From the IMG/VR virus record IMGVR_UViG_3300034116_000182, positions 1-56,547 of that record: a stretch of DNA of 56,547 nt. One strand, 5' to 3'. Positions 11,100 through 49,032 of the stretch are shown piece by piece. The translations under genes were made by a program, and so were the position numbers. Positions within the stretch are counted from its first letter, which is position 1; each line of letters opens with the position of its first letter. Under the pieces are notes generated by a model, which did not search any database, was not told where the DNA came from, and saw nothing but the letters and a program-made list of their open reading frames with translations. This DNA comes from a virus (lineage: Duplodnaviria > Caudoviricetes).

Positions 11100-11744
11100 T
11101 TAAAAGGGGATGTCTTCGTCGTCTTCAAAGGACGGTGCCTTAGACGCTTGCTGTGGAGTTGCTTTACCTTGGAGCTTTTCCCACTCAGGTGAGGCCATGA
11201 TTTTCTTCTTCAGGTTATCGCTGAAGCTTTGGAACATCACCATGTCGGGCTCGTTCAGAATGAACATTTCATTGGTGTTGATTGCGGCGGGGAGTCCTGC
11301 GTTTTTAATGACTGCGGGAACAGGGGATACGCCTGCGACGTTCACATACATTTTATTGTCTGCGCCGGGCTTCTCAATCACGTTCAGCATGCACCATGCA
11401 CCTAGTACGTTCTTGAGGTCAAAACGACGCATCTCTTCCTGCGTGAAGGGCTTACCGCGCCATGACTGTAGGTCTGCACGAAGGTTTGCTTTCTCTGCCC
11501 ATGAGAACGTGTAGTTCTTGAACATAGCAAACGGGCGACCATCTTTCATTTTGATGGGTGTACCGTCGTCATTCACACCGTGGACTTCCCATCCAAGCAT
11601 GATTTTGTGAAGGAGTTTGCTAACGCCCATGTACTCTGATTTTTGAGTACCAAGGTCAATGATTCGGTAGCAACGTGCTAGGTGCATACCTGAGGGTGTG
11701 GATTCGAAAGAACCGCCCTTGTCTTCAACAATAAAACTGCTCAT
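11100..11744 (-). CDS. Single-stranded DNA-binding/replication protein
   Basis: Acidic C-terminal EDDEDIPF tail; GMHLARCYRIIDLGTQ N-terminus; next to exonuclease; ATG at 11744 overlaps the upstream TGA. Confidence 0.75.
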   Translation of the reverse strand: MSSFIVEDKGGSFESTPSGMHLARCYRIIDLGTQKSEYMGVSKLLHKIMLGWEVHGVNDDGTPIKMKDGRPFAMFKNYTFSWAEKANLRADLQSWRGKPFTQEEMRRFDLKNVLGAWCMLNVIEKPGADNKMYVNVAGVSPVPAVIKNAGLPAAINTNEMFILNEPDMVMFQSFSDNLKKKIMASPEWEKLQGKATPQQASKAPSFEDDEDIPF

Positions 11745-11836
11745 ACATTTCTCCAGATAAAAACGTCCAACAGGACAACAAACGCGCCGATAGCGCATAT
11801 AACGAATAACACTTTGTCTTCTAGGTCGTAACCCAT
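11741..11836 (-). CDS. 31-aa single-TM membrane peptide (MGYDLEDKVLFVICAIGAFVVLLDVFIWRNV)
   Basis: Read by hand; AAGGAG RBS; first gene after the leftward promoter; ATGA coupling to SSB. Confidence 0.75.
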   Translation of the reverse strand: MGYDLEDKVLFVICAIGAFVVLLDVFIWRNV

Positions 11837-11847
11837 AATTTCTCCTT

Positions 11848-11888
11848 AACCGACAACATTGTCGTGCCAGAACTATAACACAGAATTA
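11848..11888 (-). promoter_or_regulatory. Leftward early promoter with TAAY-N5-GTTA box and leader hairpin
   Basis: Minus strand TAATTCTGTGTTA overlapping extended -10 TGTTATAGT, then CACGAC-AATGTT-GTCGGTT. Confidence 0.75.
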
Positions 11889-11920
11889 AAGCCTGCAACA
11901 TCTTTTTTTATCTTGCTCTG

Positions 11921-11937
11921 TAACGCCAAGTTACGAT
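11921..11937 (+). promoter_or_regulatory. Rightward promoter/operator of the Cro-like gene
   Basis: TAACGCCAAGTTA overlapping -10 TACGAT. Confidence 0.65.
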
Positions 11938-11949
11938 ATAGTGTGCCAA

Positions 11950-12150
11950 ATGACACTTACTGAATACTTTTCGACCGAACCAAGGGGAGCTAAATCAGAG
12001 ATGGCGGAGTACCTTCGCATATCTCCTACGTGGCTATCCTTGATCATGAATGGGAGCCGAAAGGCTTCTCCTGAGCTATCACTGAGGATTGAACAGGCAA
12101 CACAAGGTCTGGTTAAACGGACTGAGTTGCGCCCTGATATTTTCTTGTGA
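11950..12150 (+). CDS. Cro/YdaS-like helix-turn-helix regulator
   Basis: SEMAEYLRISPTWLSLIMNG...RIEQATQGLV..ELRPDIF is a typical YdaS/Cro pattern; divergent from the recombination operon. Confidence 0.85.
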   Translation: MTLTEYFSTEPRGAKSEMAEYLRISPTWLSLIMNGSRKASPELSLRIEQATQGLVKRTELRPDIFL

Positions 12151-12162
12151 TACGATAAAACC

Positions 12163-12265
12163 ATTGCTTGGCGGCAATTTTTGAGTAAGCCCTAGACGGG
12201 ACTCTGCTGGTACTCACCAGTCCGCCAACATCGAAAGATGAGAGTCTCGCCTAGGGCTTTTTTTT
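12163..12265 (+). ncRNA. C4-antisense-like structured RNA/attenuator 1
   Basis: Promoter TTGCGC-N18-TACGAT; 5' hairpin loop TTGGCGG; three-way junction closed by AAGCCCTAG/CTAGGGCTT plus T-tract, with CCGCCAA in the junction. Confidence 0.7.
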
Positions 12266-12279
12266 CCTTTGGAGCAATT

Positions 12280-13068
12280 ATGAAAATATTAAAGTTTAGC
12301 CAGATCCGAATTGACGGTGGCACACAAATGCGTGTTTCGATTAACCAAGATAAAGTTTCCGAGTACGCTGAGAAGATGCGTGAAGACGCAAAGTTCCCTC
12401 CTATCAAGGCGACGTTTGACGGTACGGTTTATTGGCTGTATGACGGTTTCCACCGTTACTTTGCGGCTCAGTCAGCAGGGTTCACCACCATTGAGGTGGA
12501 CTATAAGCCCGGAACGATGGAGGACGCACAAGACCTCGCATTGAGAGCCAACAACGAGCACGGTCTGCCACGTACCAACGAAGACAAGCGCAAGTCAGTT
12601 GAAACCGCTCTGTCCTATGAGCGCCACGCCAAAAAGTCTGACCGTGAGATTGGCAGATTGTGCGATGTGTCTCACACACTGGTTGCCGCTGTCCGTAACC
12701 CTGAGATCAGAAAACAACAAGCCAAGAACTACGTCAAGCACCTTGAGAAGGTCGTTGCCGAAGATAGTGGCAACAACTCCACTGGCAACAACTCCACTCC
12801 AGATCCCAAAGTGGAGTTGACTCAGGACTACGGCCCTGACGAGCAAGAGCTAAAAGCCAACGAGTTAGCACAGCAAGCCGACCTTGAGGCGATGAACAAG
12901 CTGTTGGAGTCTGACGACGCACTGTCTACGGCACACGCAGAGGTCAAGAGACTTAATCATTTAGTTTCCCAATTGCAAGTTCGTATCTCTGTGTTGATGC
13001 GCGAGAAGAACGCCGCCATCGACATGGTCAAAGAGTATCAAGCTAAAGAGAAAAAGGCCAAAAAATGA
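12280..13068 (+). CDS. ParB/Srx N-terminal domain protein with HTH and coiled coil
   Basis: FPPI..TFDG..YWLYDGFHRY.AA motif; SDREIGRLCDVSHTLV HTH; GGAG RBS before ATG 12280. Confidence 0.8.
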   Translation: MKILKFSQIRIDGGTQMRVSINQDKVSEYAEKMREDAKFPPIKATFDGTVYWLYDGFHRYFAAQSAGFTTIEVDYKPGTMEDAQDLALRANNEHGLPRTNEDKRKSVETALSYERHAKKSDREIGRLCDVSHTLVAAVRNPEIRKQQAKNYVKHLEKVVAEDSGNNSTGNNSTPDPKVELTQDYGPDEQELKANELAQQADLEAMNKLLESDDALSTAHAEVKRLNHLVSQLQVRISVLMREKNAAIDMVKEYQAKEKKAKK

Positions 13069-14588
13069 ACGCAGTCCTAGCACCGAGTGAGTGTGATGAT
13101 GGATTCCCCGAACCACGCGCATTCCAAATTGATGCCCACCAACAACTCCGTCAGGGGTTTCGTGAGGGGCATAAGAACCAACTGATCATGGCCCCCACGG
13201 GTGCCGGCAAAACTTACCTTGGCCTTCGTATCTGCAATGAAGCGATGCAAAAGGGCAAGAAGGCAGTGTTCCTATGTGATCGCACGACGCTGATCAATCA
13301 AACCTCTGAGGTGGCGTCCGCCTATGGTTTAGATGACCACGGTGTGATTCAAGCCAATCATTGGAAGCGCCGACCTGACAAACTGCTACAGATTGCCTCT
13401 GTGCAGACCATTGCCAAACGTGCGTACTGGCCTGCTCTTGACGTGTTGGTGATCGACGAAGCTCACACGATGTACAAGCCTTGGGTGGAGTACGCGCAGA
13501 GCACTGGAGCGGCTGTCATTGGTCTGTCTGCGACGCCGTTCTCTACAGGCTTGGGAAAGGTGTTCTCAAACCTCATAAACGCCACCACAATGCACGAACT
13601 CACGCAGTCTGGGGTGTTGGTGCCTATGCGGATATTTTCTTGCACAAAGCCCGATATGGCTGGCGCGGCTACCGCAGGCGGTGAGTGGACAGACAAAGCG
13701 GCTGAAGAGCGCGGTATGGCGATTGTTGGCGACGTTGTGACTGAGTGGCTACGCTTTGCTGAGAACCGCAAGACCATCGTGTTCGGCGCCACCATCAAGC
13801 ACTGCGAAGAGTTAGCCCAACAGTTCATCAATCAAGGCGTGATGGCGGCTGTGTTCACGTCACATACGACACCAAAAGAGCGCGAGTTGTTGCTTGACGA
13901 ATACCGCAAGCACGACAGCCACCTGAAGATACTGATTTCGGTGGAAGCGTTAGCCAAAGGCTTTGACGTTCCTGACGTCGGTTGCGTGTGTGATGCACGA
14001 CCACTGCGCAAGTCACTGAGCACTGCAATCCAGATGTGGGGACGTGGCCTGCGGTCGTCGCCTGACACTGGGAAAAAGGACTGCTACTTGCTGGACTTCA
14101 GCGGCAACATCGTTCGCTTTGCTGAAGACTTTACCGACGTGTTTTTTAACGGTTTGGACAAGCTGGACGACGGTGAGAAGCTCGACAAGAAAATCCGTAA
14201 GGACGAGGACTATGAACTTAAGGGTTGCCCCAAGTGTGGCTATTCTCCGTTCACCAAGCGGTGCATGGGTTGCGGGTACGAGCGCCCTAGTAAGCAGATG
14301 GAAAAAGCCATCGATGGACAGATGACCGAGATTTTTATCGGTGAGGGTAAGAACAAGAAAAAGCTCGCTGACAACGCAGAGCATTTGTGGCATCAAGTTG
14401 TTGCGTATGCAAAGGTTCATAGCGCACCTGAGAAGCAACAAGGTCGTGCCTATCACTTGTTTAAGAAAATCACTGGGCTTGAGCCGACGTGGAGGTTCAC
14501 CACTGCACCTATGGTGGAGATCTCTCGCAACGTACACAACAAGATTCAGCAGATGAACATCGCGTACAAGAAGGGAGTGGGACGATGA
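13065..14588 (+). CDS. Superfamily 2 DNA helicase with C-terminal Zn finger
   Basis: Walker A APTGAGKT, DEAH, GLSATP, GFDVP, QMWGRGLR, CPKC..CMGC. Confidence 0.93.
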   Translation: MNAVLAPSECDDGFPEPRAFQIDAHQQLRQGFREGHKNQLIMAPTGAGKTYLGLRICNEAMQKGKKAVFLCDRTTLINQTSEVASAYGLDDHGVIQANHWKRRPDKLLQIASVQTIAKRAYWPALDVLVIDEAHTMYKPWVEYAQSTGAAVIGLSATPFSTGLGKVFSNLINATTMHELTQSGVLVPMRIFSCTKPDMAGAATAGGEWTDKAAEERGMAIVGDVVTEWLRFAENRKTIVFGATIKHCEELAQQFINQGVMAAVFTSHTTPKERELLLDEYRKHDSHLKILISVEALAKGFDVPDVGCVCDARPLRKSLSTAIQMWGRGLRSSPDTGKKDCYLLDFSGNIVRFAEDFTDVFFNGLDKLDDGEKLDKKIRKDEDYELKGCPKCGYSPFTKRCMGCGYERPSKQMEKAIDGQMTEIFIGEGKNKKKLADNAEHLWHQVVAYAKVHSAPEKQQGRAYHLFKKITGLEPTWRFTTAPMVEISRNVHNKIQQMNIAYKKGVGR

Positions 14589-15457
14589 GCTTCATTCTTT
14601 TTGCACGAGCACACGGTGTAGACATTGAGCCAAGCAAGTTGTTTCCCTCTGATCGTATCCGTCGCTGTGGGACTATCGAGAAGCCACGTTCTGGCAATGG
14701 CGCCTACTTCTGGGACGGTCAGCGTGGGTGGGTTATGGACTGGTCAGGCGAAGCTCGCGTGATCTGGTTTGAAGATCCTAATGCGGCACCTTGGACGGAC
14801 GAACAAAAGCGCGAATGGATGGACAAGCGCCGTGCGCAGAATGCATCACGCGATACAGAGTACGACAAAGCCGCTCAGAAGGCGTATACGACGTTAAACA
14901 AGGCGAAGCTAGCCAAGCATGACTACCTGCACTTGAAGGGCTTCCCAGACCTTGAGGGGCTTGTTCTGGAGGATTCTTTGCTGGTGCCTATGCGCAACGT
15001 GGTGACAAACAATTTGCAAGGCTATCAGCGGATCTACTGGGATGCTGAAAACCGCAAGTGGGAAAAGAAAATGCTGTTGGGCATGCGAGCGAAAAACGGC
15101 GTGATGTTCATGGGCGATAGAAAGGCTTCAGAGGTCTGGTTGTGCGAAGGGTATGCCACAGGGTTGTCTATCCACGCCGCGCTCCGTAGCGTCGGTTTAA
15201 AGGCGTCTGTGGTGGTTTGTTTCTCAGCATCAAACATGGTGGCTGTGGCTGACCAGATCAAAGGTGATCGATTCATCTTTGCTGACAACGACGAGAGCAA
15301 GACTGGTGAAGAGTTTGCTGGCAAGACTGGCCTACCTTGGACGATGGCTGACACCGTGGGTTTTGATGCTAATGATTTGCATAAAAGCAACGGGTTGTTT
15401 GCATTGGTCGGAAAGATTATGGGATTGCGAAATAAAGTGATGTTGCAGGCGGCTTGA
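14585..15457 (+). CDS. TOPRIM-domain DNA primase
   Basis: CEGYATGLS, FADND, GFDANDLH motifs; ATGA coupling to the helicase. Confidence 0.85.
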   Translation: MSFILFARAHGVDIEPSKLFPSDRIRRCGTIEKPRSGNGAYFWDGQRGWVMDWSGEARVIWFEDPNAAPWTDEQKREWMDKRRAQNASRDTEYDKAAQKAYTTLNKAKLAKHDYLHLKGFPDLEGLVLEDSLLVPMRNVVTNNLQGYQRIYWDAENRKWEKKMLLGMRAKNGVMFMGDRKASEVWLCEGYATGLSIHAALRSVGLKASVVVCFSASNMVAVADQIKGDRFIFADNDESKTGEEFAGKTGLPWTMADTVGFDANDLHKSNGLFALVGKIMGLRNKVMLQAA

Positions 15458-15517
15458 TGTATATTGTGGGTGTGGTTACCGCAGTTGCCACATTTTTTTG
15501 GTTCTCCATTTGAGTTT

Positions 15518-15552
15518 CCCCCTTCACCTCAGACGTGAAGGGGTTTTTTTTT
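15518..15552 (+). terminator. Rho-independent terminator after primase
   Basis: CCCCTTCAC-CTCAGAC-GTGAAGGGG followed by T9. Confidence 0.9.
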
Positions 15553-15560
15553 GATACCTC

Positions 15561-15591
15561 TTGACACGTCTTGAAATACTGTGGTTATAAT
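15561..15591 (+). promoter_or_regulatory. Sigma70-type promoter upstream of the non-coding region
   Basis: TTGACA-N19-TATAAT: perfect hexamers with a long spacer. Confidence 0.65.
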
Positions 15592-15597
15592 TTGCTC

Positions 15598-15688
15598 GTT
15601 GTCGTAGTGGTCAACAATCTTGAAGCCGTTTACACATGCCTCGCCCCGTCTGGGGAACCACTACGGGGCAGTTGTAAGCGGCTTTTTT
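15598..15688 (+). ncRNA. C4-antisense-like structured RNA/attenuator 2
   Basis: 5' hairpin loop CGTAGTGGT is complementary to ACCACTACG inside a multistem closed by AAGCCGTTTACA/TGTAAGCGGCTT plus T-tract. Confidence 0.68.
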
Positions 15689-15689
15689 A

Positions 15690-15930
15690 TTTCCTCTACC
15701 CATCCGTACTCCGCACGTTAGCAAGCACCCCAGTCGTGGTGGCGCGGAAGGAAAGCGTACACGGTATGACCTAGGTCTAGGGGGCAGTTCCCGAACAATC
15801 CGTGCGACTGGTCGAATCATCAAGTCGGGGGTTTTGCGCAAGCAAACATGATGATCCCGTATAGCGGGGGTGAAGCACCTAATCTCTCTCTTACTCCACT
15901 CGTGGGGTAGGGGGGGTCTTTGGGTGAAAG
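15690..15930 (+). ncRNA. Putative ~240-nt structured RNA of unknown function
   Basis: No credible ORF; multiple stems, a GCAA tetraloop, and a long G-U-rich terminal hairpin that pairs only as the + strand RNA. Confidence 0.55.
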
Positions 15931-15996
15931 GATTGATAAGGGATGTAGGTGTATCAAAAAGTTTGGGGTCGATCCTTTTTTTTTGGTTACAAACTG

Positions 15997-16036
15997 TAAT
16001 TCTGTGTTAGAGTGTGATCACCACAATGAGTGGGTT
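15997..16036 (+). promoter_or_regulatory. Early promoter with TAAY-N5-GTTA box and leader hairpin
   Basis: TAATTCTGTGTTA / -10 TAGAGT, then CACCAC-AATGA-GTGGGTT. Confidence 0.7.
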
Positions 16037-16049
16037 TAAGGAGAATGAA

Positions 16050-16262
16050 ATGATTGATAAAAAACGTTTTTACATTTTTGACTGCAACAACAAGATGCTT
16101 GGCAATCCGTTTGGATACAAGACGCATGGCGCGGCGCAAGCTCAAACGAGTCGTCGCGGTGGCACAGTGCGTAGCTACATCTGGCATGCGTTCAACAAGG
16201 GGAGGATTGCAGATCCCAGCACCACTTTGGTTTACTCCATCAAGATTGGAGAGTTGGTATGA
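16050..16262 (+). CDS. Hypothetical protein
   Basis: AAGGAG RBS; first gene after the promoter. Confidence 0.7.
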   Translation: MIDKKRFYIFDCNNKMLGNPFGYKTHGAAQAQTSRRGGTVRSYIWHAFNKGRIADPSTTLVYSIKIGELV

Positions 16263-17062
16263 ACCCAAAGGTTGCAGATTTAGCATCAAAGGTTGGGTTT
16301 GATGCCGCCGATTACACATGGTTTGACTTTTCAGAACTTGGTGATCATGCCGATGAAGAGCTTAAAAGCGTTGGACAACAATATGGATGGCACAAACAGA
16401 TGATGCATCTTGATCAGTTTTTGACTCCATCTGATCACATGGCGGTTATACAACCAGCATGGCCTGACATTGCATTTACCTACGATAAATACATCAAATT
16501 TGGTGGTTATGAGGGAGCCGCCGCCATGCTGTGGACAAACGATGGGTTTGAATCTCCGTTGGCAATAGTTACGGAAAAGCGGGTTCGTGTTGTTGGCGCT
16601 GAAGATGAAGATGGAACAAATGTTGTGATCCATCAAAAACTTATGGAGGCGTCAAAACGCGGCGGTATGACGGAGCATGATGCTATGAAACTTTATGAAG
16701 ACGCCTGCATCAGCGCGGTTAACTACGCTTGTTTGATTAACTTACGTGCGCATACCACTGAGCAGGTAGTTACCGCGCACATGGCAAAAGGGTTGGAGTT
16801 CATTAACCGCAAGCGTAGGGCAAAGCACCAACCGTTGGTGTACTCGTGGAACACAATTGAATTAAAGCCAGACGCGCAGGTCAAGCAACCTTACAAGGGC
16901 GGTACACACGCAAGCCCAGCCCGTCACAAGCGACGCGCTCATATGAGGCGTTTAAGCGCAGGTGGCTTTACATGGATCCCTGAGATGTGGGTAGGTAGCA
17001 TTGAGAACGGACTGATCGTGCATGACTACGTTGCTGATCGTGAATTGAAAGGAAAAGCATGA
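16259..17062 (+). CDS. Hypothetical phage protein, 267 aa
   Basis: C-terminal SPARHKRRAHMRR...WVG motif seen in many phage proteins; ATGA overlaps at both ends. Confidence 0.75.
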   Translation: MNPKVADLASKVGFDAADYTWFDFSELGDHADEELKSVGQQYGWHKQMMHLDQFLTPSDHMAVIQPAWPDIAFTYDKYIKFGGYEGAAAMLWTNDGFESPLAIVTEKRVRVVGAEDEDGTNVVIHQKLMEASKRGGMTEHDAMKLYEDACISAVNYACLINLRAHTTEQVVTAHMAKGLEFINRKRRAKHQPLVYSWNTIELKPDAQVKQPYKGGTHASPARHKRRAHMRRLSAGGFTWIPEMWVGSIENGLIVHDYVADRELKGKA

Positions 17063-17532
17063 CCGAAAGAGAAGCATTGAAGCTGGCGCTAGATGCCTTG
17101 GAAACATCTATGTATCCGCAACAAAAACAATTGCAAGCCATCACCGCCATCAAAGAAGCCTTGGAACAGCCAGAGCAATATACAACGGATGCCATGAAAG
17201 TGCGACAAGCAGTAGCGCAAGCATTGCATGATGATGTTTATGCCGAAGAATTGGAGCAACCTGAAGCAAAACAATCTGGCACTATTTCTATAACCATGCC
17301 AGCACCCGTTGCATACCTTTGTGAAAACGCGGTAGGTCATAAATACTTTAGATGGAAAAAGCCATCAAGTACATATAAGCCGATACCGCTCTACACCACC
17401 CCACCACAGCGCAATCCGCTGACGGATGAGGAGATAGGCGCAATCCTTGAAGACACTAACGCCTTTGGAACACGGCTATATACATTTGCCCGAGCCATTG
17501 AAGCCGCACACGGCATTAAGGGGGAAGCATGA
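17059..17532 (+). CDS. Hypothetical protein (mosaic small phage modules)
   Basis: REALKLALDALE, PVAY, PLYTTPPQR, PLTDEEI...FARAIEAAHGI modules typical of proteobacterial phages. Confidence 0.75.
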   Translation: MTEREALKLALDALETSMYPQQKQLQAITAIKEALEQPEQYTTDAMKVRQAVAQALHDDVYAEELEQPEAKQSGTISITMPAPVAYLCENAVGHKYFRWKKPSSTYKPIPLYTTPPQRNPLTDEEIGAILEDTNAFGTRLYTFARAIEAAHGIKGEA

Positions 17533-17807
17533 CCGAAGAGCAAGAACGCGAAGAGCTAATCGTTCAGCGCCGTGCTCAGGCATTCATCTTGGATGGATGT
17601 CCCAATGAAGATGCATACGAGCTTGCATGGACTTTGGCTTTGCGTGACCGTGAGCAAGGCATGGACGACAGGCGGATCTGCTTCGAGTGCAAGCACTACG
17701 TCAACAAAAGGTGCAATGTGATCCTCGACAGAAAAGGTTACCCCTCACAGCAGTTGCGATTCATTCTGCAACGATGCCCCAAATTCACAATCAAAGGAAA
17801 GAAATGA
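17529..17807 (+). CDS. Hypothetical Cys-rich protein, 92 aa
   Basis: DDRRICFEC...C...LQRC.F motif; coupled genes. Confidence 0.7.
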   Translation: MTEEQEREELIVQRRAQAFILDGCPNEDAYELAWTLALRDREQGMDDRRICFECKHYVNKRCNVILDRKGYPSQQLRFILQRCPKFTIKGKK

Positions 17808-18268
17808 AACGCATAGGAATTGACCCCGGCTTGTCGGGTGCCATCGTCATCATCGACGACAACAAAACACCGATTGAGTGGACAGCGATGCCCACCATGA
17901 AAACAGGATCAGCTAACAGGGTGAACGCTTCTGCATTGGCGGCGTTCATTCGCCCACACCTGTACGGCGATGAAAAGATCTTTGCATACGTGGAGTTGGT
18001 TTCCAGCATGCCCAAGCAAGGTGTAGCGTCGATGTTCTCGTTTGGACACTCAGCAGGGGTCATACAAGGCGTTTTGGGCGCGTTTGAGATACCAGTGACT
18101 ATGGTGACCCCAAACATGTGGAAAACACGCGCTAGGCTGATTGGGCAGGACAAAGACGCATCAAGGGTGAAAGCAATCCAGATGTACCCACATTGGAGGG
18201 ATCTGGACAAGAAGGGTAAGGGTCAAGCTTTGGCTGACGCAACATTGATAGCAATTTACGGGATGTGA
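17804..18268 (+). CDS. ruvC: RuvC-like Holliday junction resolvase
   Basis: IGIDPG.SGAI, E, GVASMFSFG, P..WK, ADA.LIA catalytic pattern. Confidence 0.85.
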   Translation: MKRIGIDPGLSGAIVIIDDNKTPIEWTAMPTMKTGSANRVNASALAAFIRPHLYGDEKIFAYVELVSSMPKQGVASMFSFGHSAGVIQGVLGAFEIPVTMVTPNMWKTRARLIGQDKDASRVKAIQMYPHWRDLDKKGKGQALADATLIAIYGM

Positions 18269-18269
18269 T

Positions 18270-18503
18270 ATGGAAATGAATGAATGGGAAAAAGCAATGG
18301 GCTGGCGCAAGCGTCAGATGGTCAAGGCGCAAGTTATTTGGGCAGAACGAATCAACAAAGTATTTGACCCAGATTACAACTACGAGCGCGACATGCGCAA
18401 CCGAACGCTAGAGGAGGTAGCGAAGGCGGTGTACGACTTCAAAGCTTTTGAGAAGGACACGATGGATAGCTTCGCGACATACATACGGAGCATGAAACGA
18501 TGA
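18270..18503 (+). CDS. Hypothetical protein, 77 aa
   Basis: RNRTLEEVA motif; in operon. Confidence 0.65.
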   Translation: MEMNEWEKAMGWRKRQMVKAQVIWAERINKVFDPDYNYERDMRNRTLEEVAKAVYDFKAFEKDTMDSFATYIRSMKR

Positions 18504-18643
18504 ACGAAAAAAAGACCTGTCAGGTGTGCCGACTCCGCCCTGCAGAAGTTAAAGGCAAGAACAGTAGGGGCGCTCCACAGTGGCGCTGTATTACGTGCCA
18601 TGAACTAAAAAATCGAGTCGGTTTTACAAAAGGAAAATCATGA
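18500..18643 (+). CDS. 47-aa Zn-ribbon protein
   Basis: Read by hand: CQVC...CITC; ATGA overlaps at both ends. Confidence 0.7.
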   Translation: MNEKKTCQVCRLRPAEVKGKNSRGAPQWRCITCHELKNRVGFTKGKS

Positions 18644-18975
18644 ACGAAAAAGACATTAACGACGCAGTCGATTTTATTTACACACACGGCAAAAAGTATG
18701 CAGAGGCGAAAGCTCATTTGGCATACGTCGAGGAGTTTCGCAAGTCCAAGAAGGCCATGCTCATGAAGCATGCAATGACCAATGGAGTTAAGACTGTTGC
18801 CGCCGCTGAAATCGAGGCGTATGCGGCGATGGAGTACATCGAGCACCTGAAGGCCATAGAAGAGGCTACAGAGCAGGCAGAAGCCCTCAGGTGGGGCTTG
18901 GTAGCGGCACAGGCTCGCGTGGACGTGTGGCGCTCTCTGGAGGCTTCTAACCGCACTATGGATCGACTGGGATGA
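18640..18975 (+). CDS. Helical phage protein, possibly a recombination mediator
   Basis: All-helical 111 aa ending VWRSLEASNR; among recombination genes; function is inferred. Confidence 0.55.
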   Translation: MNEKDINDAVDFIYTHGKKYAEAKAHLAYVEEFRKSKKAMLMKHAMTNGVKTVAAAEIEAYAAMEYIEHLKAIEEATEQAEALRWGLVAAQARVDVWRSLEASNRTMDRLG

Positions 18976-19235
18976 ACAACAACCTGAATAAGGCAGAACG
19001 CAAGCACTTGCAGGAGGTCAAAGAGCTTCCCTGCAGTGTGTGCGACGAGGCGCCGCCCTCTGACGCCCACCACATCAAGCAAGGCAGGCAGTACACCTGC
19101 GTAGCCCTGTGCAAGTCCTGCCATCAGGGGAGCAAGATGGGCTGGCACGGGGAGAGAAGGGCGTGGGCTATAGCCAAAATGGACGAGCTAGACGCCCTAA
19201 ACGTGACCATAAAGCGTCTAAGGGAAAACACTTAG
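18972..19235 (+). CDS. Ref/DUF968-like HNH nuclease
   Basis: CSVC...HH...LCKSCHQG...H pattern. Confidence 0.7.
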   Translation: MNNNLNKAERKHLQEVKELPCSVCDEAPPSDAHHIKQGRQYTCVALCKSCHQGSKMGWHGERRAWAIAKMDELDALNVTIKRLRENT

Positions 19236-19321
19236 AAAAATAAATGAAAATATTTTTCAAAAGGGGTTCACAAGTGCTCTAACTTGGAGTTACAATCACA
19301 TCACCGCAACGTTAGCGGGTT
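19219..19321 (+). promoter_or_regulatory. Early promoter cassette
   Basis: TAAGGGAAAACACTTA upstream; TTCACA-N18-TACAAT; TAACTTGGAGTTA box; CACCGC-AACGTTA-GCGGGTT hairpin. Confidence 0.75.
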
Positions 19322-19341
19322 TAACCTAAAAGGGAATTATC

Positions 19342-19695
19342 ATGACAGCAGTTACAGTAGCGACAGAAGTACAAGCAGTAGCAACCGTTGAGTCTTTACT
19401 CAACCCCATCGACCAACTCTTCGTGTTGGATCGTCAACAAAAGGCTTTGGCCTCTCAGGTCAAAACTCTCAAAGACGGCATCGCCAACTCATACGAGTTG
19501 TCTGAGAAAGATGCCAACGGCAAAATCATTCCTCACCGTGGTGAGAAGTACGGTGTGAAGCTCACCATCGAGAACCGTATCGGTTCCGTTGACGTGGAAG
19601 CCGTCATCAAAGCATTGGGCATCACAGAAGCTGAGTTCAATGCAAAGTTCCGTGGCGAGACAAGCGCCATCATCAAAGTTTCACCAACAGCCTAA
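19342..19695 (+). CDS. Hypothetical early protein, 117 aa
   Basis: RBS; first gene after the promoter. Confidence 0.75.
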   Translation: MTAVTVATEVQAVATVESLLNPIDQLFVLDRQQKALASQVKTLKDGIANSYELSEKDANGKIIPHRGEKYGVKLTIENRIGSVDVEAVIKALGITEAEFNAKFRGETSAIIKVSPTA

Positions 19696-19705
19696 GGGGA
19701 TCACC

Positions 19706-19975
19706 ATGAACAAGAAAATCAAACTCCAAAACATTTACGTTGGTCAACTCGTGGTTACCAGCACCAGCGCAGAAGCCCAAGTGCGTACCGTGGAAAGCGT
19801 CGAAGGACTCATGGTTACTCTGACTTGGTACGAAGGCACCAACCAGTGCATTCAAGGTGTTGACTACTCCTTGCTGAGTGTGCCAACAGTTGCCCAAATC
19901 GAGTACAGCATCAACAACCACGGTCGGCTCGCCAACCTGCAAGATGTTGAAGACGTAACACTTTTAATCGGTTAA
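19706..19975 (+). CDS. Hypothetical early protein
   Basis: AAGGGG RBS before ATG 19706. Confidence 0.7.
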   Translation: MNKKIKLQNIYVGQLVVTSTSAEAQVRTVESVEGLMVTLTWYEGTNQCIQGVDYSLLSVPTVAQIEYSINNHGRLANLQDVEDVTLLIG

Positions 19976-19981
19976 ACCAAA

Positions 19982-19997
19982 GGGGGCTTCGGCCCCC
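19982..19997. terminator. GC hairpin with UUCG loop (weak terminator or stabiliser)
   Basis: GGGGGC-TTCG-GCCCCC; no + strand T-tract. Confidence 0.45.
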
Positions 19998-20013
19998 ATC
20001 AAAGGAGAGCATT

Positions 20014-20193
20014 ATGGAATACACAATCAAACACAACGGTGACCAAAATATGTTTTTGGACAGTTGGGAGGACGGTGGCGTGTGGCTGTCAGTCCACGGT
20101 AGGAATCACCACGTCGGCACATCATTGACTCGCGAGCAAGCTCAAGCTATGTTGGAAGCATTGACAAAACTTTTGGAAGAGGTGACAGCATGA
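20014..20193 (+). CDS. Hypothetical protein, 59 aa
   Basis: Read by hand; AAGGAG RBS; LTREQAQAML motif; ATGA coupling. Confidence 0.7.
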   Translation: MEYTIKHNGDQNMFLDSWEDGGVWLSVHGRNHHVGTSLTREQAQAMLEALTKLLEEVTA

Positions 20194-20372
20194 TTGAACT
20201 ACCACCATACTCGAAGATCAGTTACCCTTCGACACCCAACAAAGATTTCAAATGGGAGTCGGGGTCTGACGTGCAGGCCATATGGCGCAAGTACGGGTGG
20301 ACGCCACCCAGCGAGAAAATGGCGCCACCCCCACCCGAAAGATTTATTGAACTTGTAAGGAAATTCAAATGA
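20190..20372 (+). CDS. Hypothetical protein, 60 aa
   Basis: DVQAIWRKYGWTPPSE motif; coupled genes. Confidence 0.7.
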   Translation: MIELPPYSKISYPSTPNKDFKWESGSDVQAIWRKYGWTPPSEKMAPPPPERFIELVRKFK

Positions 20373-20650
20373 CCAAAGAAGTAAGCCAACTCGCGCGCCA
20401 ATTGCTAGGCACCGCCGGCGCAGTGGAGTTCTATACCCAGCAAGAGTTTGACGCCGCTGTAGCAATTGCCAAAGCCGAGATCATGACGGTGGCTATCGAG
20501 ACGAGCAAGCGAGCCATCATGATTGAGCGCAAGGAGTGCTCTAGGCTGGTCGCAGAGCTTGCGAATCAAGAAGATGAGGGGGAAGTAGCCACAGCCCTCA
20601 TGAACGCCGCTAAAGCGATTTACAACCGCATACCGAGTCAGATGCAATGA
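20369..20650 (+). CDS. Hypothetical protein, 93 aa
   Basis: ERKEC motif; coupled genes. Confidence 0.7.
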   Translation: MTKEVSQLARQLLGTAGAVEFYTQQEFDAAVAIAKAEIMTVAIETSKRAIMIERKECSRLVAELANQEDEGEVATALMNAAKAIYNRIPSQMQ

Positions 20651-20817
20651 AAATCACAGAAACAGAAGAAAAGGATTTCATTTACGCCCAAGGGTTTGAC
20701 ATGGGGGTGACCTTTGTGTTGACCGCCATGATTCTGCATTTTGAGAATGGAGAAGTTCTAGTGGATTCGCTTAAAGCATTTATGGATCCCCAGCTAGACA
20801 AGGCAAAAGCCCACTAA
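20647..20817 (+). CDS. Hypothetical protein, 56 aa
   Basis: Read by hand; ATGA coupling. Confidence 0.55.
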   Translation: MKITETEEKDFIYAQGFDMGVTFVLTAMILHFENGEVLVDSLKAFMDPQLDKAKAH

Positions 20818-20826
20818 AAAAGGTAT

Positions 20827-20897
20827 TAGGGAAAGTCCCTATTAAATACTTGCTGTAACTTCGTGTTAGAATTCACTCACTGCAAAATTAGCAGGTT
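20827..20897 (+). promoter_or_regulatory. Early promoter cassette
   Basis: TAGGGAAAGTCCCTA; TAACTTCGTGTTA / TGTTAGAAT; CACTGC-AAAATTA-GCAGGTT. Confidence 0.8.
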
Positions 20898-20913
20898 ATT
20901 ACTGGAGCAAATT

Positions 20914-21792
20914 ATGAACACAGCATCTAATCCCTTCGACGACATGTCCAACGACTTGGACTTCGGCGCACCAGCCAACTCCACAACTTCCGAAGTTACT
21001 TACTTCGAGCAAGCTTGCACCAAGTGCAACGGCACTGGTCGCTTCACCTTCGGTTACGTCAACGTTCGCTCAGGCGAGTGCTTTGCTTGCAAGGGCAAAG
21101 GCAAGTTGTCTTTCAAGACTTCACCAGCTACGCGCCTTAAAGCAAAGATGGCTTCACAAAAACGTGCTGTTGCTGTGGCACAAGCCAAGGCCACCACTGC
21201 GCAAGAGTGGAAAGATGCCAACCCAGCAGAAGCCGCATGGATGGAAAGCAGTGCCGCTAAGTTTGCATTTGCTGGCGCTATGCTCGACGCCCTGAACAAG
21301 TTTGGTTCACTTACAGAAAAGCAATTTGAGACAGTACAGCGCCTGACTTTGCAGTCAGCACAGTTCATGGCAGAACGCGCTACAGAGAAAGCCGCTCGTA
21401 TCGAGTCAGCCCCAGTGGTGACCGTAGAAGCTATCGAGGTTGCATTCAACAACGCCAAGCAAGCAGGCGTAAAGCGCCCCAAGTTGCGCCTCGACACATT
21501 TGTGTTCAGCCCAGCTTCAGAGACAAGCGCTAACGCTGGCGCCATCTACATCAAAAACAAAGAAGACGGTTTGTACTTAGGCAAGGTCATGGGTGGTCGC
21601 CTGTTCACATCACGCGAATGCACCACAGAGGCCGCAGAACGCATTGTGGCGGTGTCTAGCGACCCAGCCCAAGCCGCCATAGCCTACGGCAAGAAATTCG
21701 GTGCCTGCTCCATCTGCGGACGTGCATTGACAGACGCTGACAGCATCGCTCGTGGCATTGGCCCCATCTGTGCTGACAACTACGGTTTTTAA
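20914..21792 (+). CDS. Zn-finger protein (CxxCxGxG repeats plus DUF6011-like C-terminus)
   Basis: CTKCNGTG, CFACKGKG; CSICGRALTD..SIARGIGPIC. Confidence 0.75.
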   Translation: MNTASNPFDDMSNDLDFGAPANSTTSEVTYFEQACTKCNGTGRFTFGYVNVRSGECFACKGKGKLSFKTSPATRLKAKMASQKRAVAVAQAKATTAQEWKDANPAEAAWMESSAAKFAFAGAMLDALNKFGSLTEKQFETVQRLTLQSAQFMAERATEKAARIESAPVVTVEAIEVAFNNAKQAGVKRPKLRLDTFVFSPASETSANAGAIYIKNKEDGLYLGKVMGGRLFTSRECTTEAAERIVAVSSDPAQAAIAYGKKFGACSICGRALTDADSIARGIGPICADNYGF

Positions 21793-21812
21793 TTTAACAA
21801 GAGGAGAACATC

Positions 21813-22184
21813 ATGGCTACATATTGGAACGAACAAGGCACCTACCAAACCATTGCAGAAGCCCTTCAGGGGCTCGTGCCAGCGATTGGCGAGGTGCCTG
21901 AGGGCAAGACTACCAACAAGGCGCTGGAGCGCTTCAGAAGGGCGCAGAACTGCTACTACGACCTGTACAACAATGGACTGGGCAACCGGGCCCGAGAGTT
22001 CAGCACGTTGTTCAGGATTCCCGGCGTCCCACGCGAGATCAAGCAAAACTATCGCACCAACTTTTTGGTGTCGTCTGTGACTGAGGGTGCCATCGAGAAC
22101 AAGATGGACGGATTCATTCTGGATGCCTACCGCGAGCAGGTGGCATTGGGCAAACTTCAACCAGTGAACATGGAGGCCGTATGA
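21813..22184 (+). CDS. Hypothetical early protein, 123 aa
   Basis: AGGAG RBS; YYDLYNNG motif. Confidence 0.75.
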   Translation: MATYWNEQGTYQTIAEALQGLVPAIGEVPEGKTTNKALERFRRAQNCYYDLYNNGLGNRAREFSTLFRIPGVPREIKQNYRTNFLVSSVTEGAIENKMDGFILDAYREQVALGKLQPVNMEAV

Positions 22185-22432
22185 AGCGCATTTACATCAA
22201 AGCTTTCAACAAGCTAACCAAGATGGGTGTACCAGTCTACGAGCACCACGACGACAACGGAAACTTCAGCATCAGTGCTGAGGACGAGGGATCATCCAAC
22301 TGGGTGAACTACTACGATGGCGCTCGCGTATGGGGTGACAGCATCAAGCCTGAGCTACGCGATACATTGATTGGCATGGGCCTGTTTGCAGAGTGGCACA
22401 ACCCCGGCAGATTGGCTGTTTATAAAATTTAA
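22181..22432 (+). CDS. Hypothetical early protein, 83 aa
   Basis: FSISAE...GLFAEW.NPG motif; coupled to the upstream gene. Confidence 0.75.
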   Translation: MKRIYIKAFNKLTKMGVPVYEHHDDNGNFSISAEDEGSSNWVNYYDGARVWGDSIKPELRDTLIGMGLFAEWHNPGRLAVYKI

Positions 22433-22438
22433 TCGTAT

Positions 22439-22509
22439 TAGGGAAAGTCCCTACTTCCTAACTCCTTTAATTTGGAGTTAGAATTACATCACTGCAAAAT
22501 TAGCAGGTT
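22439..22509 (+). promoter_or_regulatory. Early promoter cassette
   Basis: TAGGGAAAGTCCCTA; TAATTTGGAGTTA / TAGAAT; CACTGC-AAAATTA-GCAGGTT. Confidence 0.8.
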
Positions 22510-22524
22510 TAAAAAGGAAACATT

Positions 22525-22932
22525 ATGAACTTCGGTACACAAACAGGCAGTCTCGTTAACCACATGTACAGCCGCATGACAGTCGGCGCTCCAGCACCAA
22601 CAGTTGGCATGGGCGCTACAAAATTATCATGGAGTGATCGCCACGCCGCAACGGTGACAAAGGTTACTGAGTTGAAGAGCAAAGTGTGGGCATACGAGAT
22701 CAACGTCATGGAAGACAAAGTGACGTGTGTCTCTGGTAGCGCACACGATGGCAGTGCCGTCTACACCTTCGAGCCAAACCCATACGGATACGCTGACATG
22801 TATCGCATGGATCGCAAGACAGGCAAATGGGTTCGCGGTTACATCAACGGAGCAACAGGCAGATTCAAGCAACGCCGTAGTGGTGGTTTGATCTTGGGCA
22901 TGCGTGAACATTACTACGATCCACACTTCTAA
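22525..22932 (+). CDS. Hypothetical early protein, 135 aa
   Basis: P.VGMGAT...WSDRHA.TV...G.RE.YYDPHF, a recurrent phage family pattern. Confidence 0.8.
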   Translation: MNFGTQTGSLVNHMYSRMTVGAPAPTVGMGATKLSWSDRHAATVTKVTELKSKVWAYEINVMEDKVTCVSGSAHDGSAVYTFEPNPYGYADMYRMDRKTGKWVRGYINGATGRFKQRRSGGLILGMREHYYDPHF

Positions 22933-22945
22933 AAAACGAGGGGGG

Positions 22946-23001
22946 TTGACACCCTCCTTTAATTCCATGTTAGAATTACTTCACTGCAAATTTAGCAGGT
23001 T
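22946..23001 (+). promoter_or_regulatory. Early promoter cassette
   Basis: TTGACA-N19-TAGAAT with extended TG; TAATTCCATGTTA; CACTGC-AAATTTA-GCAGGTT. Confidence 0.8.
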
Positions 23002-26185: not shown

Positions 26186-26214
26186 AACTGTAGTTAACTA
26201 CACTTTGAAAAGTG

Positions 26215-26243
26215 TGGACGTGCCATGTTGGTGAAGGCATAAT
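26215..26243 (+). promoter_or_regulatory. Possible internal promoter for the multi-domain gene
   Basis: TGGACG-N17-CATAAT, preceded by the perfect palindrome TGTAGTTAACTACA. Confidence 0.5.
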
Positions 26244-26268
26244 GGGCGGCATTCATGAAGGACATTCC

Positions 26269-45237: not shown

Positions 45238-46101
45238 ATGTCTCTTAGTAAAGTTGGCGGGATTCTCTCTGCTGGTTTAAACGGCATTAACTACCCTGTC
45301 ACAGCGGTGGAATACCTTGTCGTGGCTGGTGGAGGTGGTGGTGGTCGAGAAACTAATACTTCTGGCGTTGGTGGTGGTGGTGGTGCTGGCGGCTTATTAA
45401 CTGCAACGGGACTTTCTGTTGCTATTGGGACTGCGTACACAATAACTATTGGCGCTGGTGGTGCAGGACTAAATACTTCAACGGGTGCTGTTGGAAATAA
45501 CGGCTCTAATTCTGTATTTAGCTCTATTACTGCAATTGGTGGTGGCGGTGGTGGCGGTACAACTTTACAAGCTGGCGCTGTTGGTGGCTCTGGCGGTGGT
45601 GGTTCTATTTCTGGTGGCGGTGGTGCGGCTGGAACGGCTGGACAAGGTAATGCAGGGGGAACGCATAACACAACATATAACTCCGCTGGTGGTGGAGGCG
45701 GTGCTGGCTCTGTTGGTGGTAATGCTGGCGCTTATGGTGGCGGTAATGGTGGAACAGGATTAGTTTCATCAATATCTGGCGCACAAATTCAATATGCTGG
45801 CGGTGGAGGCGGCGCTACTACTTTAACAAACGCATCTTTAGGTGGAGGTGGAGGCGGTGGCAACGGCTCAATTTATACATCATCATCGTTTGGTGGTGGT
45901 GGTTTGGCTAATACAGGTGGCGGTGGTGGAGGTGGTTCAAATGGCCCTGCACCGTCAGGCGCTGGCGGTTCAGGCATCGTAGTCATTCGCTACCCATCTT
46001 ACTTAGCCCCTGCCACATCAACAACAGGCAGTCCTGAAATGGTTGTATCTGGCGGTTGGCGCGTGTACACATTTGTTGCATCTGGAACAATTACATTCTG
46101 A
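45238..46101 (+). CDS. Glycine-rich adhesin-like protein 1 (one domain)
   Basis: VEYLVVAGGG...GGGGAGG...YAGGGGG...NTGGGGGG...GGSGIV.IRY. Confidence 0.8.
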   Translation: MSLSKVGGILSAGLNGINYPVTAVEYLVVAGGGGGGRETNTSGVGGGGGAGGLLTATGLSVAIGTAYTITIGAGGAGLNTSTGAVGNNGSNSVFSSITAIGGGGGGGTTLQAGAVGGSGGGGSISGGGGAAGTAGQGNAGGTHNTTYNSAGGGGGAGSVGGNAGAYGGGNGGTGLVSSISGAQIQYAGGGGGATTLTNASLGGGGGGGNGSIYTSSSFGGGGLANTGGGGGGGSNGPAPSGAGGSGIVVIRYPSYLAPATSTTGSPEMVVSGGWRVYTFVASGTITF

Positions 46102-46107
46102 GGATAT

Positions 46108-47793: not shown

Positions 47794-47794
47794 A

Positions 47795-48658
47795 ATGAGT
47801 CAAACTTTATTAGGTGGATTCATTTCCGCAACCTTTAACCCACTGTCTGGTGCGCCTACGACTGTTGAATATCTAGTGGTTGCTGGTGGGGGTGGCGGCG
47901 GTGGTTACTTTGGTGCTATTGGCGGTGGCGGTGGCGGTGCTGGTGGTCTTTTAACTGCGGCGGGGTTTACTGTTGCGACTGGTTCTGCTTTAACCATTAC
48001 TGTGGGTGCTGGCGGTGCGGGTGCGGCTAGTAACTCTGGTGACTTAGGAACTGTGGGATCAAATTCTGTTTTTAGTTCTATTACTGCAACAGGTGGAGGT
48101 GCTACTGGTGCGTATAACGCAGCACAGTCTCAGAACGGGGGTTCCGGCTCGGGATCAACTTACGCTTCTGGTGGGGGAACAGGAGTAGCAGGACAAGGAT
48201 TTGCTGGTGGTACTTCTTCAAACTCATACTCCGGAGGCGGCGGTGGCGGTGCTGGATCAGTCGGACTTGTAGGAACTCAAGCAGTTAAAGCCGGAGATGG
48301 CGGTACGGGGCTATGCTCTACCATAACTGGCTCAAGAGTCTTCTATGCTGGTGGTGGTGGAGGTGGAACAGATTCTTATGTAGCTGGACTTGGCGGTGGC
48401 GGTGGTGGTGGGAACGGTGCGTATGCAGGGACGATGCCGTCTGGTAGAACCACGGCACAAGCAAACACAGGTGGCGGTGGCGGCGGCGGCTTTACAACAT
48501 CGGTAGTCACTCAAGGCAACGGAGCCTCTGGAATCGTCATCATTCGTTACCCTGCATCACAATTGCCTCCTACTTCTACAACAGGAAGCCCTCAGATAAA
48601 CTACGCTGATGGGTATCAGATTTACACTTGGACATCTTCTGGCACTATTACTTTTTAA
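47795..48658 (+). CDS. Glycine-rich adhesin-like protein 3 (one domain)
   Basis: Paralogue of 45238-46101, same length (287 aa). Confidence 0.8.
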   Translation: MSQTLLGGFISATFNPLSGAPTTVEYLVVAGGGGGGGYFGAIGGGGGGAGGLLTAAGFTVATGSALTITVGAGGAGAASNSGDLGTVGSNSVFSSITATGGGATGAYNAAQSQNGGSGSGSTYASGGGTGVAGQGFAGGTSSNSYSGGGGGGAGSVGLVGTQAVKAGDGGTGLCSTITGSRVFYAGGGGGGTDSYVAGLGGGGGGGNGAYAGTMPSGRTTAQANTGGGGGGGFTTSVVTQGNGASGIVIIRYPASQLPPTSTTGSPQINYADGYQIYTWTSSGTITF

Positions 48659-48667
48659 GGAGCAAAC

Positions 48668-49021: not shown

Positions 49022-49032
49022 TAGGAATAATC

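Follow-up and report, generated by a model that had tools for sequence, protein, structure and literature searches.

A covarying hairpin at the predicted 5′ end of early transcripts, carried on repeated promoter cassettes in uncultured freshwater phages

The window analysed here is the whole 56,547-nucleotide stretch of IMG/VR virus record IMGVR_UViG_3300034116_000182 (Duplodnaviria; Caudoviricetes), a complete genome with direct terminal repeats of 127 bp. At six places in its early region, a promoter is followed by a small hairpin whose stem changes from copy to copy while its pairing is kept. The comparisons described below support a structure-selected RNA element at the predicted start of early transcripts, and extend it to a family of phages. 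It belongs, with a terminator-like stem-loop and the promoter, to a repeated cassette whose copies mark the boundaries of gene shuffling. The initial annotation of this DNA had noticed the hairpin with its CA and GTT flanks but had missed the cassette; its unit was right in its parts and too small in extent, as a conserved TAAYTY element and an upstream stem-loop belong to it too. We propose, with moderate confidence, that the hairpin is a 5′-terminal structural leader that would shield early mRNAs from 5′-end-dependent decay, carried on a promoter cassette resembling the PeSL elements of T4-type phages.

Six hairpin sites and the cassettes that carry them

A regular expression search of the whole window for CA-CNNC-N4-9-GNNG-GTT, with complementary arms demanded, yields six sites only: 11848-11866 on the minus strand, and 16019-16036, 19302-19321, 20878-20897, 22490-22509 and 22982-23001 on the plus strand. 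These are exactly the six copies listed in the initial annotation. Three sites have the stem CTGC/GCAG, whereas CGAC/GTCG, CCAC/GTGG and CCGC/GCGG have one site each. Shuffling the window 300 times with dinucleotides preserved gives a mean of 0.19 occurrences of the pattern and a maximum of 2. If any Watson-Crick 4-bp stem is admitted, 11 instances are observed versus 4.2 expected, so the signal sits in the C..C/G..G class at promoters. A covariance model, a search proposed along with the initial annotation, was built from 35 related modules (model R1) and run on the whole window. Its matches are the six sites alone (33-45 bits, E-values from 3e-7 to 9e-5), the next match having an E-value of 6.5, and no cassette is found after 23.0 kb. 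The same model has four matches in MW202545, an uncultured Caudoviricetes record. The earlier failure to assign the hairpin to a named motif is borne out by Rfam, which gives zero matches at the gathering threshold in the whole window and, at E <= 5 in the 11.7-23.2 kb region, only two irrelevant sub-threshold matches located elsewhere. When folded alone, each hairpin is the dominant structure but a weak one (-4.7 to -6.2 kcal/mol, z -0.9 to -2.0). Because the single hairpins are weak, the evidence for the element lies in recurrence, fixed position and covariation, not in stability.

The cassette is 60-75 nt long and has a constant order: a terminator-like stem-loop, a promoter of sigma70 type whose spacer is conserved and whose -10 is extended, five bases, CA, the hairpin, G-G-U and the ribosome site. 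The position of the hairpin, earlier described as a few nucleotides after a -10 box, is in fact fixed in the window, each site lying 5 nt 3′ of GTTAnAnT (TGn/AGn plus TAnAnT, an extended -10-like element). Nine bases upstream of this element, at -23 to -18 relative to the predicted start, TAAYTY is conserved, and all six cassettes share TAAYTY-N3-GTTAnAnT. A CA placed 6-7 nt past a -10 element is the usual pyrimidine(-1)/purine(+1) transcription start. From this promoter geometry we infer that the A of CA is +1, 7 nt after the -10 hexamer, and that the stem begins at +2. A Shine-Dalgarno sequence and an ATG follow the hairpin sites at 1-12 nt, and in four of the six copies the stem is followed by GGUUU, a short U-run. 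In the predicted leaders of S1-S4 and S6 the ribosome site is unpaired; that of S5 has a marginal alternative fold. The six cassettes (S1 to S6) and the open reading frame (ORF) enclosed by the last two are as follows, with protein lengths in amino acids (aa).

S1, 11848..11888 (-): TAATTC 11888-11883; GTTATAGT (extended -10) 11879-11872; N5; CA 11866-11865 (predicted -1/+1); leader hairpin CGAC(A)-ATGT-(T)GTCG; GTT 11850-11848; AAGGAG 11847-11842; ATG 11836; downstream a 31-aa ORF, then 11100-11798
S2, 15997..16036 (+): upstream stem-loop with a T9 run ending at about 15976-15984; TAATTC 15997-16002; GTTAGAGT 16006-16013; N5; CA 16019-16020; leader hairpin CCAC-AATGA-GTGG, GTT; Shine-Dalgarno sequence; ATG 16050
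S3, 19280..19321 (+): TAACTT; GTTACAAT 19289-19296; N5; CA 19302-19303; leader hairpin CCGC-AACGTTA-GCGG, GTT; ATG 19342
S4, 20827..20897 (+): stem-loop TAGGGAAAGTCCCTA 20827-20841; TAACTT 20856-20861; GTTAGAAT 20865-20872; N5; CA 20878-20879; leader hairpin CTGC-AAAATTA-GCAG, GTT; ATG 20914 (phrog_4046-like gene)
S5, 22439..22509 (+): stem-loop TAGGGAAAGTCCCTA 22439-22453; TAATTT 22468-22473; GTTAGAAT 22477-22484; N5; CA 22490-22491; leader hairpin CTGC-AAAATTA-GCAG, GTT; ATG 22525
ORFan, 22525..22932 (+): 135-aa ORF between S5 and S6; no Pfam family
S6, 22939..23001 (+): G/C stem-loop GAGGGGGGTTGACACCCTCC at about 22939-22958, with TTGACA in the loop; TAATTC 22960-22965; GTTAGAAT 22969-22976; N5; CA 22982-22983; leader hairpin CTGC-AAATTTA-GCAG, GTT; ATG 23021

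The upstream stem-loops, candidate terminators, are present at S2, S4, S5 and S6, and none is clear at S1 or S3. The stem-loop TAGGGAAAGTCCCTA is identical at S4 and S5 (two copies in the window versus 0.07 expected). Similarity extends over whole cassettes: S4 and S5 are about 81% identical over 75 nt, and S5 and S6 are 84-85% identical over 62 nt.

A simple consensus promoter scanner listed S3 alone because the window copies have no good -35. At S4, S5 and S6 a spacer element, TTTAATTY/GTAACTT, is kept at -24 to -17. No -35 is recognisable at S4 and S5. Near S6 there is a TTGACA at 19 nt from the -10, whereas relatives have theirs at 16-17 nt. The work of the -35 may fall to the conserved spacer element, perhaps via an activator or an unusual sigma contact. 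A related observation concerns the spacer of the rightward promoter, just 5′ of a 49-aa gene for a YdaS-like helix-turn-helix (HTH) protein, which contains the perfect palindrome GTAAC-N5-GTTAC (11921-11935, plus strand). Half-sites of the form TAAY-N5-GTTA overlap the spacer and the extended -10 in all six cassettes. A perfect copy of the palindrome is present in a distant relative (L041, about 4750-4766), and the syntenic region of MW202545 has no clear copy. The palindrome may be an operator of this HTH protein, which would govern the whole promoter set. Two other ideas were rejected. First, the 3′ flank (GTAAC in relatives) and the GTTA at the -10 were considered as a DNA operator or a long-range RNA helix; the window copies have GGTT(T)A, and the distance to the -10 shifts by 13-15 nt with hairpin length. 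Second, a LexA box (CTG..CAG) was dropped, as the stems differ among copies.

The module in related phages

A search with the phrog_4046-like protein encoded downstream of S4 gave 42 IMG/VR loci. Further loci, found by a promoter-pattern scan alone, are a mixture of chance AT-rich matches and true relatives. The same module is borne by an uncultured freshwater phage family, with more than a dozen different stems on short and long hairpins. The promoter of the relatives is near consensus: TTGACA or TTGCAT, a 16-17-nt spacer containing TTTAATTT and TG, and then TATACT, followed by five bases, CA and again a hairpin. The stems seen include CTGC, CTGAC, (A)TCGAC, CCGC, CCAC, CGAC and CGATCA, together with CGGTC (with a G-U pair), CCAAA, CTAA, CCAA and CTGACCGCA. 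Short forms span 13-16 nt and long forms 21-28 nt. The long forms have a covarying lower stem with an internal loop and an apical GC-AAUnnn-GC unit, which is constant in sequence on the longer lower stems and tracks the hairpin tip, not the distance from +1.

Pairing was earlier claimed to survive the stem changes on the strength of the four stems in the window, and the relatives strengthen this claim. Among the short forms (alignment A1, 35 unique rows) double changes are found at three of the four pairs (16 cells). The covariation score is 0.413 versus 0.144 after shuffling (0/500 shuffles reach it) and at most 0.063 with a slid partner. Among the long forms (A2, 25 rows) double changes are found at four of the five lower-stem pairs, with a score of 0.271 versus 0.134 after shuffling and at most 0.060 in slid controls; the two apical G-C pairs are invariant, hence uninformative for covariation. 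Compensation can also be followed at one orthologous site. The S2 stem is CCAC/GTGG in the window versus CGAC/GTCG 5′ of the same gene in the locus L030, and in the contig of a relative 16022 C>G occurs together with 16032 G>C. The latter contig comes from one metatranscriptomic run that shares 6% of sampled words with the window and yields assembled contigs of an approximately 88%-identical relative; these contigs (one is 27.7 kb long and may be DNA) carry no starts, ends or strand, and they were used for variants and block order only.

A count without any hairpin requirement was made on 65 unique promoter-pattern sites from the window and the protein-homology loci. A minimum-free-energy (MFE) hairpin from +1/+2 with dG <= -4.5 is present at 44 of them, compared to 21% of 6000 random positions; this energy-based criterion was adopted over a laxer one with a 29% background. 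The 21 misses include three real hairpins, two of them spaced at 6-7 nt and the third masked by an alternative MFE fold. Other misses are the site in L021, four hairpin-less promoters of one clade (L026, L028, L031), the rightward promoter of the window at 11921 and one palindromic site. The remaining misses look like chance matches inside genes. In L026, L028, L029 and L031 the TTTAAAATGCGTTATAGT promoter is kept upstream of the phrog_4046-like gene and its leader has no hairpin, a natural loss that may help in comparing function.

Module statistics were taken over 61 unique modules from the window and the relatives. The first paired base is +2 in 53 of the 61 and +1 in 7, whatever the length (13-28 nt) or sequence of the hairpin. 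The seven modules paired from +1 have A(+1) paired with U and lack the extra G of the flank. In 49 modules CAC occupies -1/+1/+2, the loop starts with AA in 49 and is closed by a C-G pair in 54, and G-U comes after the stem in about two thirds. The loops vary in length and in their remaining bases, within the window too (AATGA, AATGTT, AACGTTA, AAAATTA and AAATTTA), and loops such as CGT, TGG, ATGT and AGCAA are found in some relatives. In place of the U-run, relatives show GGUAAC after the stem.

Differences in gene content between the relatives are bounded by the cassettes. When the early region was compared with its close relatives by blastn, L004 and L038 were found to be without 22520-22942, the interval holding the 135-aa ORF between S5 and S6; in both, one cassette aligns to S5 as well as to S6 and thus replaces the series cassette-gene-cassette. 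Other genes lie between the S4- and S6-equivalent cassettes of L030. In the 27.7-kb contig mentioned above, the blocks 21810-22432 and 22435-22936 are in reversed order, with the joints just 5′ of cassettes. The genes scanned after S2, S3, S5 and S6 belong to no Pfam family.

As the cassettes bound indels and permutations, it is conceivable that the inverted repeat matters mainly as DNA, either as a recombination-prone repeat or as a hairpin/cruciform signal, and that the RNA hairpin is a by-product. We regard this as very improbable. Homologous recombination needs identity, not self-complementarity, and for this reason compensatory changes would not be selected if the repeat acted at the DNA level. 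At paired positions in L061 and L085 there are G-U pairs, which pair in RNA, whereas the other strand gives A-C. Moreover, the repeat is always on the transcribed side of the promoter and in the sense orientation.

Possible functions of the hairpin

If the hairpin is a 5′-end protection leader, the host RNA polymerase with its primary sigma factor would initiate at the A of the conserved CA. The message would start with zero or one unpaired base, continue with a 4-9-bp stem-loop, G-G-U and a short A/U-rich stretch, and then reach the ribosome site. The paired 5′ end would block the access of RppH and of the RNase E 5′ sensor, the starters of 5′-end-dependent decay in proteobacteria, and a ribosome on the adjoining start site, together with the hairpin, would leave almost no naked leader. 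Each short early operon would thus have insulation upstream, from the terminator-like stem-loop, and protection at its own 5′ end. Repetition of the 60-75-nt cassette could also make it a homology patch for gain, loss and permutation of early ORFans. According to the review PMC3997798, RppH and RNase E require single-stranded 5′ ends, and this is the accepted explanation of stabilising 5′ stem-loops; for the phage, both the stabilising effect and the involvement of the host enzymes are presumed. The initial annotation had offered three functions, namely a nut/boxB-like antitermination site, a 5′ stabiliser and a binding site for a phage protein. The helix abutting the predicted 5′ end (at +1/+2 in 60 of 61 modules), across varied sizes and sequences, is the most faithfully kept feature, and therefore the stabiliser fits the anatomy best; the nut/boxB suggestion does not hold up on boxA and loop type.

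Several observations weigh against 5′-end protection. First, a purely structural role leaves unexplained the AA loop start (49/61), the C-G closing pair (54/61) and the constant apical GC-AAU..GC, and it does not account for the G-G-U that follows the stem in most modules. Second, 4-bp stems of -4.7 to -6.2 kcal/mol, with z of only -0.9 to -2.0, are weaker than the classic stabilisers. Third, the hairpin is absent in the L026/L028/L031 clade (L029 has the same leader), and in L021 one pair is broken; because this clade has the promoter without the hairpin and L021 a broken pair, the element is dispensable. Fourth, two of the four MW202545 copies begin 6 nt, not 5 nt, after the -10. Finally, the A1 and A2 rows were chosen by a script that demanded a helix, which excluded L021, and their near-100% pairing is thus partly circular.

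Part of this pattern would be expected if the hairpin were a specific protein-binding site on the nascent early RNA, either loading an antiterminator in the manner of nut/boxB or serving as the operator of a translational regulator. The first version would let the polymerase, once past the early cassettes, continue into the long late block on the same strand, and the second would place all early operons under common control. This explanation, which we consider doubtful, draws on the conservation beyond pairing, that is the AA loop start, the C-G closing pair and the G-G-U flank, and on the apical GC-AAU..GC, which is invariant and moves with the apex while the lower stem covaries, as expected of a loop read by a protein. 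The absence of R1 matches past 23.0 kb, ahead of the plus-strand late block, the terminator-like stem-loops preceding S2, S4, S5 and S6, and hairpins too weak for high intrinsic stability are all consistent with it. However, no boxA-like motif is found in the leaders: a search with a short consensus and one mismatch allowed gave 34 matches versus about 40 expected, none of them in a leader on the right strand. The loops are heterogeneous, with 5-7 nt and differing sequence in one genome, and more so with CGT, TGG, ATGT and AGCAA in relatives. No N-like arginine-rich ORF was found among 31 ORFs examined for isoelectric point (pI) and K/R windows, the maximum being 6 K/R per 15-aa window, and no RNA-binding or antiterminator family was found among 29 proteins searched against Pfam or 17 against PHROGs, most early ORFs being unannotated ORFans. 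Position is the most constant feature here, and a fixed location at +2 is not known for nut and put sites. A clade of relatives also has otherwise intact promoters without the hairpin.

A more speculative possibility, also doubtful and perhaps slightly more so, is that the hairpin is a common tag of all early transcripts. A phage or host protein might read the C-AA loop and G-G-U at the RNA 5′ end, either to produce a terminator-resistant polymerase that runs from the early units into the late block of about 40 kb, or to identify phage mRNAs as self at the time of host mRNA shut-off. If true, this would be a new 5′-end-anchored regulatory RNA-protein system in phages of freshwater Burkholderiales. 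The covarying lower stem versus the invariant C-AA loop poses a sharp question, namely whether 5′-end protection is enough or a binding partner is needed, and the natural stem variants are a ready-made compensatory-mutation series.

Alternatively, the hairpin may act during transcription, through sigma release and promoter escape, through reduced backtracking, or as a promoter-proximal pause that couples early translation. Its fixed distance from the -10, the GGUUU after the stem in four of the six window copies and a ribosome site within 1-12 nt would suit such a role. Nevertheless, it appears unlikely to us: the hairpin span of 13-28 nt would displace the 3′ edge and any pause by 15 nt among cassettes, relatives carry GGUAAC and not a U-run, and inspection revealed no conserved -10-like pause element downstream.

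Two further possibilities, jointly the least credible, are that the hairpin serves a phage-encoded RNA polymerase of the N4 virion type as a DNA hairpin promoter, or that it imitates a CRISPR repeat and would be an RNA anti-CRISPR. They gain some appeal from two giant ORFs of 1862 aa and 1590 aa without assigned function, and from an apparent, superficial likeness of the commonest stem and its 5′ flank to a type I-F repeat stem. N4-type promoters are used by the virion RNA polymerase and have a hairpin with a 3-nt loop upstream of +1. The loops here are of 5-7 nt, not 3, and canonical sigma70-type elements lie upstream, which in relatives read TTGACA, a TG-containing 16-nt spacer and TATACT. 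Neither giant ORF has a polymerase match in PHROGs or Pfam, nor does the 1862-aa ORF in a PDB search made for it only. As to CRISPR, the stems vary among copies, and because they differ, recognition by a single Cas6-type protein is impossible. No CRISPR direct repeat or other relevant Rfam family was found in 11.7-23.2 kb, even at E <= 5.

Genome setting and comparison with known systems

The genome has one short leftward operon at 9.8-11.84 kb, encoding an exonuclease and a phrog_862 protein, and all the remaining genes run rightward. They start with the gene for a YdaS-like HTH protein (12001-12150), followed by ParB-like, helicase and primase genes (12.2-15.5 kb) and then, at 16-24.7 kb, by about 25 small ORFs to which no family was assigned. 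Next are the genes for terminase, portal, head and tail, which run on to 9.7 kb; the ORFs of at least 200 aa from 24.7 kb onward and at 0.4-9.7 kb are on the plus strand. A PHROGs scan of 17 large proteins gave only replication and structural functions, and a Pfam scan of 29 proteins gave only the YdaS-like HTH, the GDSL lipase/ASCH/GP88 matches of the 1590-aa ORF and sub-threshold matches. Zero tRNAs were found by a tRNA scan of the window. The closest TerL matches are to MW202545 (85% at the amino acid level) and then to Caulobacter phages (40%). Of the 16 related TerL loci, 11 are in bins of metagenome-assembled genomes assigned to freshwater Burkholderiales/Betaproteobacteria, and several share a bin; this binning is a weak hint that the hosts may be proteobacteria.

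Some other features of the window deserve mention. The 1590-aa ORF (26212-30984, plus strand) lies between the large terminase and portal genes and contains ASCH, GDSL-lipase/acylhydrolase and GP88-like regions, an unusual multidomain protein for that place. The 1862-aa ORF (439-6027, plus strand) has no PHROG or Pfam family. At 3982-4854 it contains tandem 12/18-nt and 54-nt coding repeats rich in Asn and Ala, and the PDB sequence search returned this low-complexity region only, circumsporozoite-protein repeats being matched by composition alone. At 45238-50739 (plus strand) there are four or five adjoining paralogous genes rich in glycine-rich GGxGG-type repeats (dozens of direct-repeat families), which probably encode tail fibre or collagen-like host-recognition proteins diversifying by duplication. 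These glycine-rich coding repeats swamped a direct-repeat scan for a late promoter motif, in which none was found. Among the early genes, a 47-aa basic ORF (18500-18643, plus strand; pI 10.2) encodes a zinc-ribbon-like small protein with CxxC-N19-CxxC; for this protein and for the 70-aa product of the first gene after S2, the ESM Atlas returned hypothetical clusters only. Finally, the primase gene, with its strong terminator (15519-15543 plus a T-run), is succeeded by an ORF-poor gap of 540 nt (15460-16000). Within it lie a consensus sigma70 promoter (TTGACA, 17 nt, TATAAT; 15562-15592, plus strand) and, after this promoter, a stretch of about 90-100 nt that folds into a long terminator-like hairpin (-42.1 kcal/mol, z -5.3, equalled by 0/200 shuffles). 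The region, above all 15562-15700 (plus strand), has no match in Rfam and is a candidate small RNA or replication/regulatory region.

Three known systems invite comparison with the hairpin and its cassette. Like lambda nut and HK022 put, the hairpin is small and promoter-proximal, has a purine/A-rich loop and stands on early transcripts with late genes downstream on the same strand. The boxB hairpin has a 5-bp stem and a GNRA-like pentaloop, and put RNAs have two larger stem-loops. Here the stems are of 4-5 bp and the loops of 5-7 nt, the folded S1 having a fifth pair and a 4-nt ATGT loop, which is not the boxB form. Unlike nut elements, which lie tens of nucleotides downstream, the hairpin abuts the predicted +1, and it comes with no boxA and with no N-like protein found among the ORFs scanned. 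The element fails as a nut site on the features that can be tested.

The 5′ stabilisers are closer in anatomy. The T7 gene 10 leader has a stem-loop of this kind. Other such leaders are described for ompA and papA of E. coli (PMC3997798, whose reference list includes Emory 1992, Bouvet and Belasco 1992, Arnold 1998 and Bricker 1999) and for T4 gene 32 (cited in PMC8948821). As in stabilisers, no more than one or two bases stand unpaired before the hairpin at the predicted 5′ end, and a ribosome site is close behind. The pairing is conserved and the sequence free to change, which would be expected if access to the 5′ end matters. In contrast, the known stabilisers are single, experimentally tested leaders with longer and more stable stems, whereas here a 4-9-bp hairpin, with stabilisation predicted, is multiplied over six promoters per genome and through a phage family. 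The conserved AA loop start and G-G-U flank are also not needed by the stabiliser model.

The cassette as a whole is best compared with the PeSLs of T4-type phages, which are sigma70 promoter and stem-loop cassettes that stand ahead of ORFans and bring about insertion, deletion and replacement (Arbiol et al. 2010, PMC2839356; Comeau et al. 2014, PMC4122927). Like these, it is a short repeated intergenic cassette in which a strong sigma70-type early promoter is combined with a stem-loop, it stands mostly 5′ of small ORFans in a variable early region, and it bounds the differences in gene content between relatives. However, PMC2839356 describes the PeSL stem-loop as a terminator, rich in G/C, that takes varying positions relative to the promoter, in five subclasses. 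The cassette studied here has two distinct structures, namely a terminator-like stem-loop upstream and a small hairpin with an A-rich loop, the latter fixed at +1/+2. The host phage is also unrelated, with a 56.5-kb genome bearing direct terminal repeats, and not a T4-type myovirus, and its cassettes are known from sequence. The cassette is an analogue of PeSL and not a member, since this is no T4-type phage and its leader hairpin is a different structure from the terminator stem-loop. In practice, it could serve expression in Burkholderiales-like hosts as a compact promoter-leader part, and it gives a landmark for early regions and module boundaries in the annotation of metagenomic phage genomes. 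It is also a well-documented instance, in a lineage of uncultured freshwater phages not related to T4, of what may be a general pattern, in which one portable cassette unites a terminator with a host-type promoter and a folded 5′ leader and new early genes are plugged in behind it.

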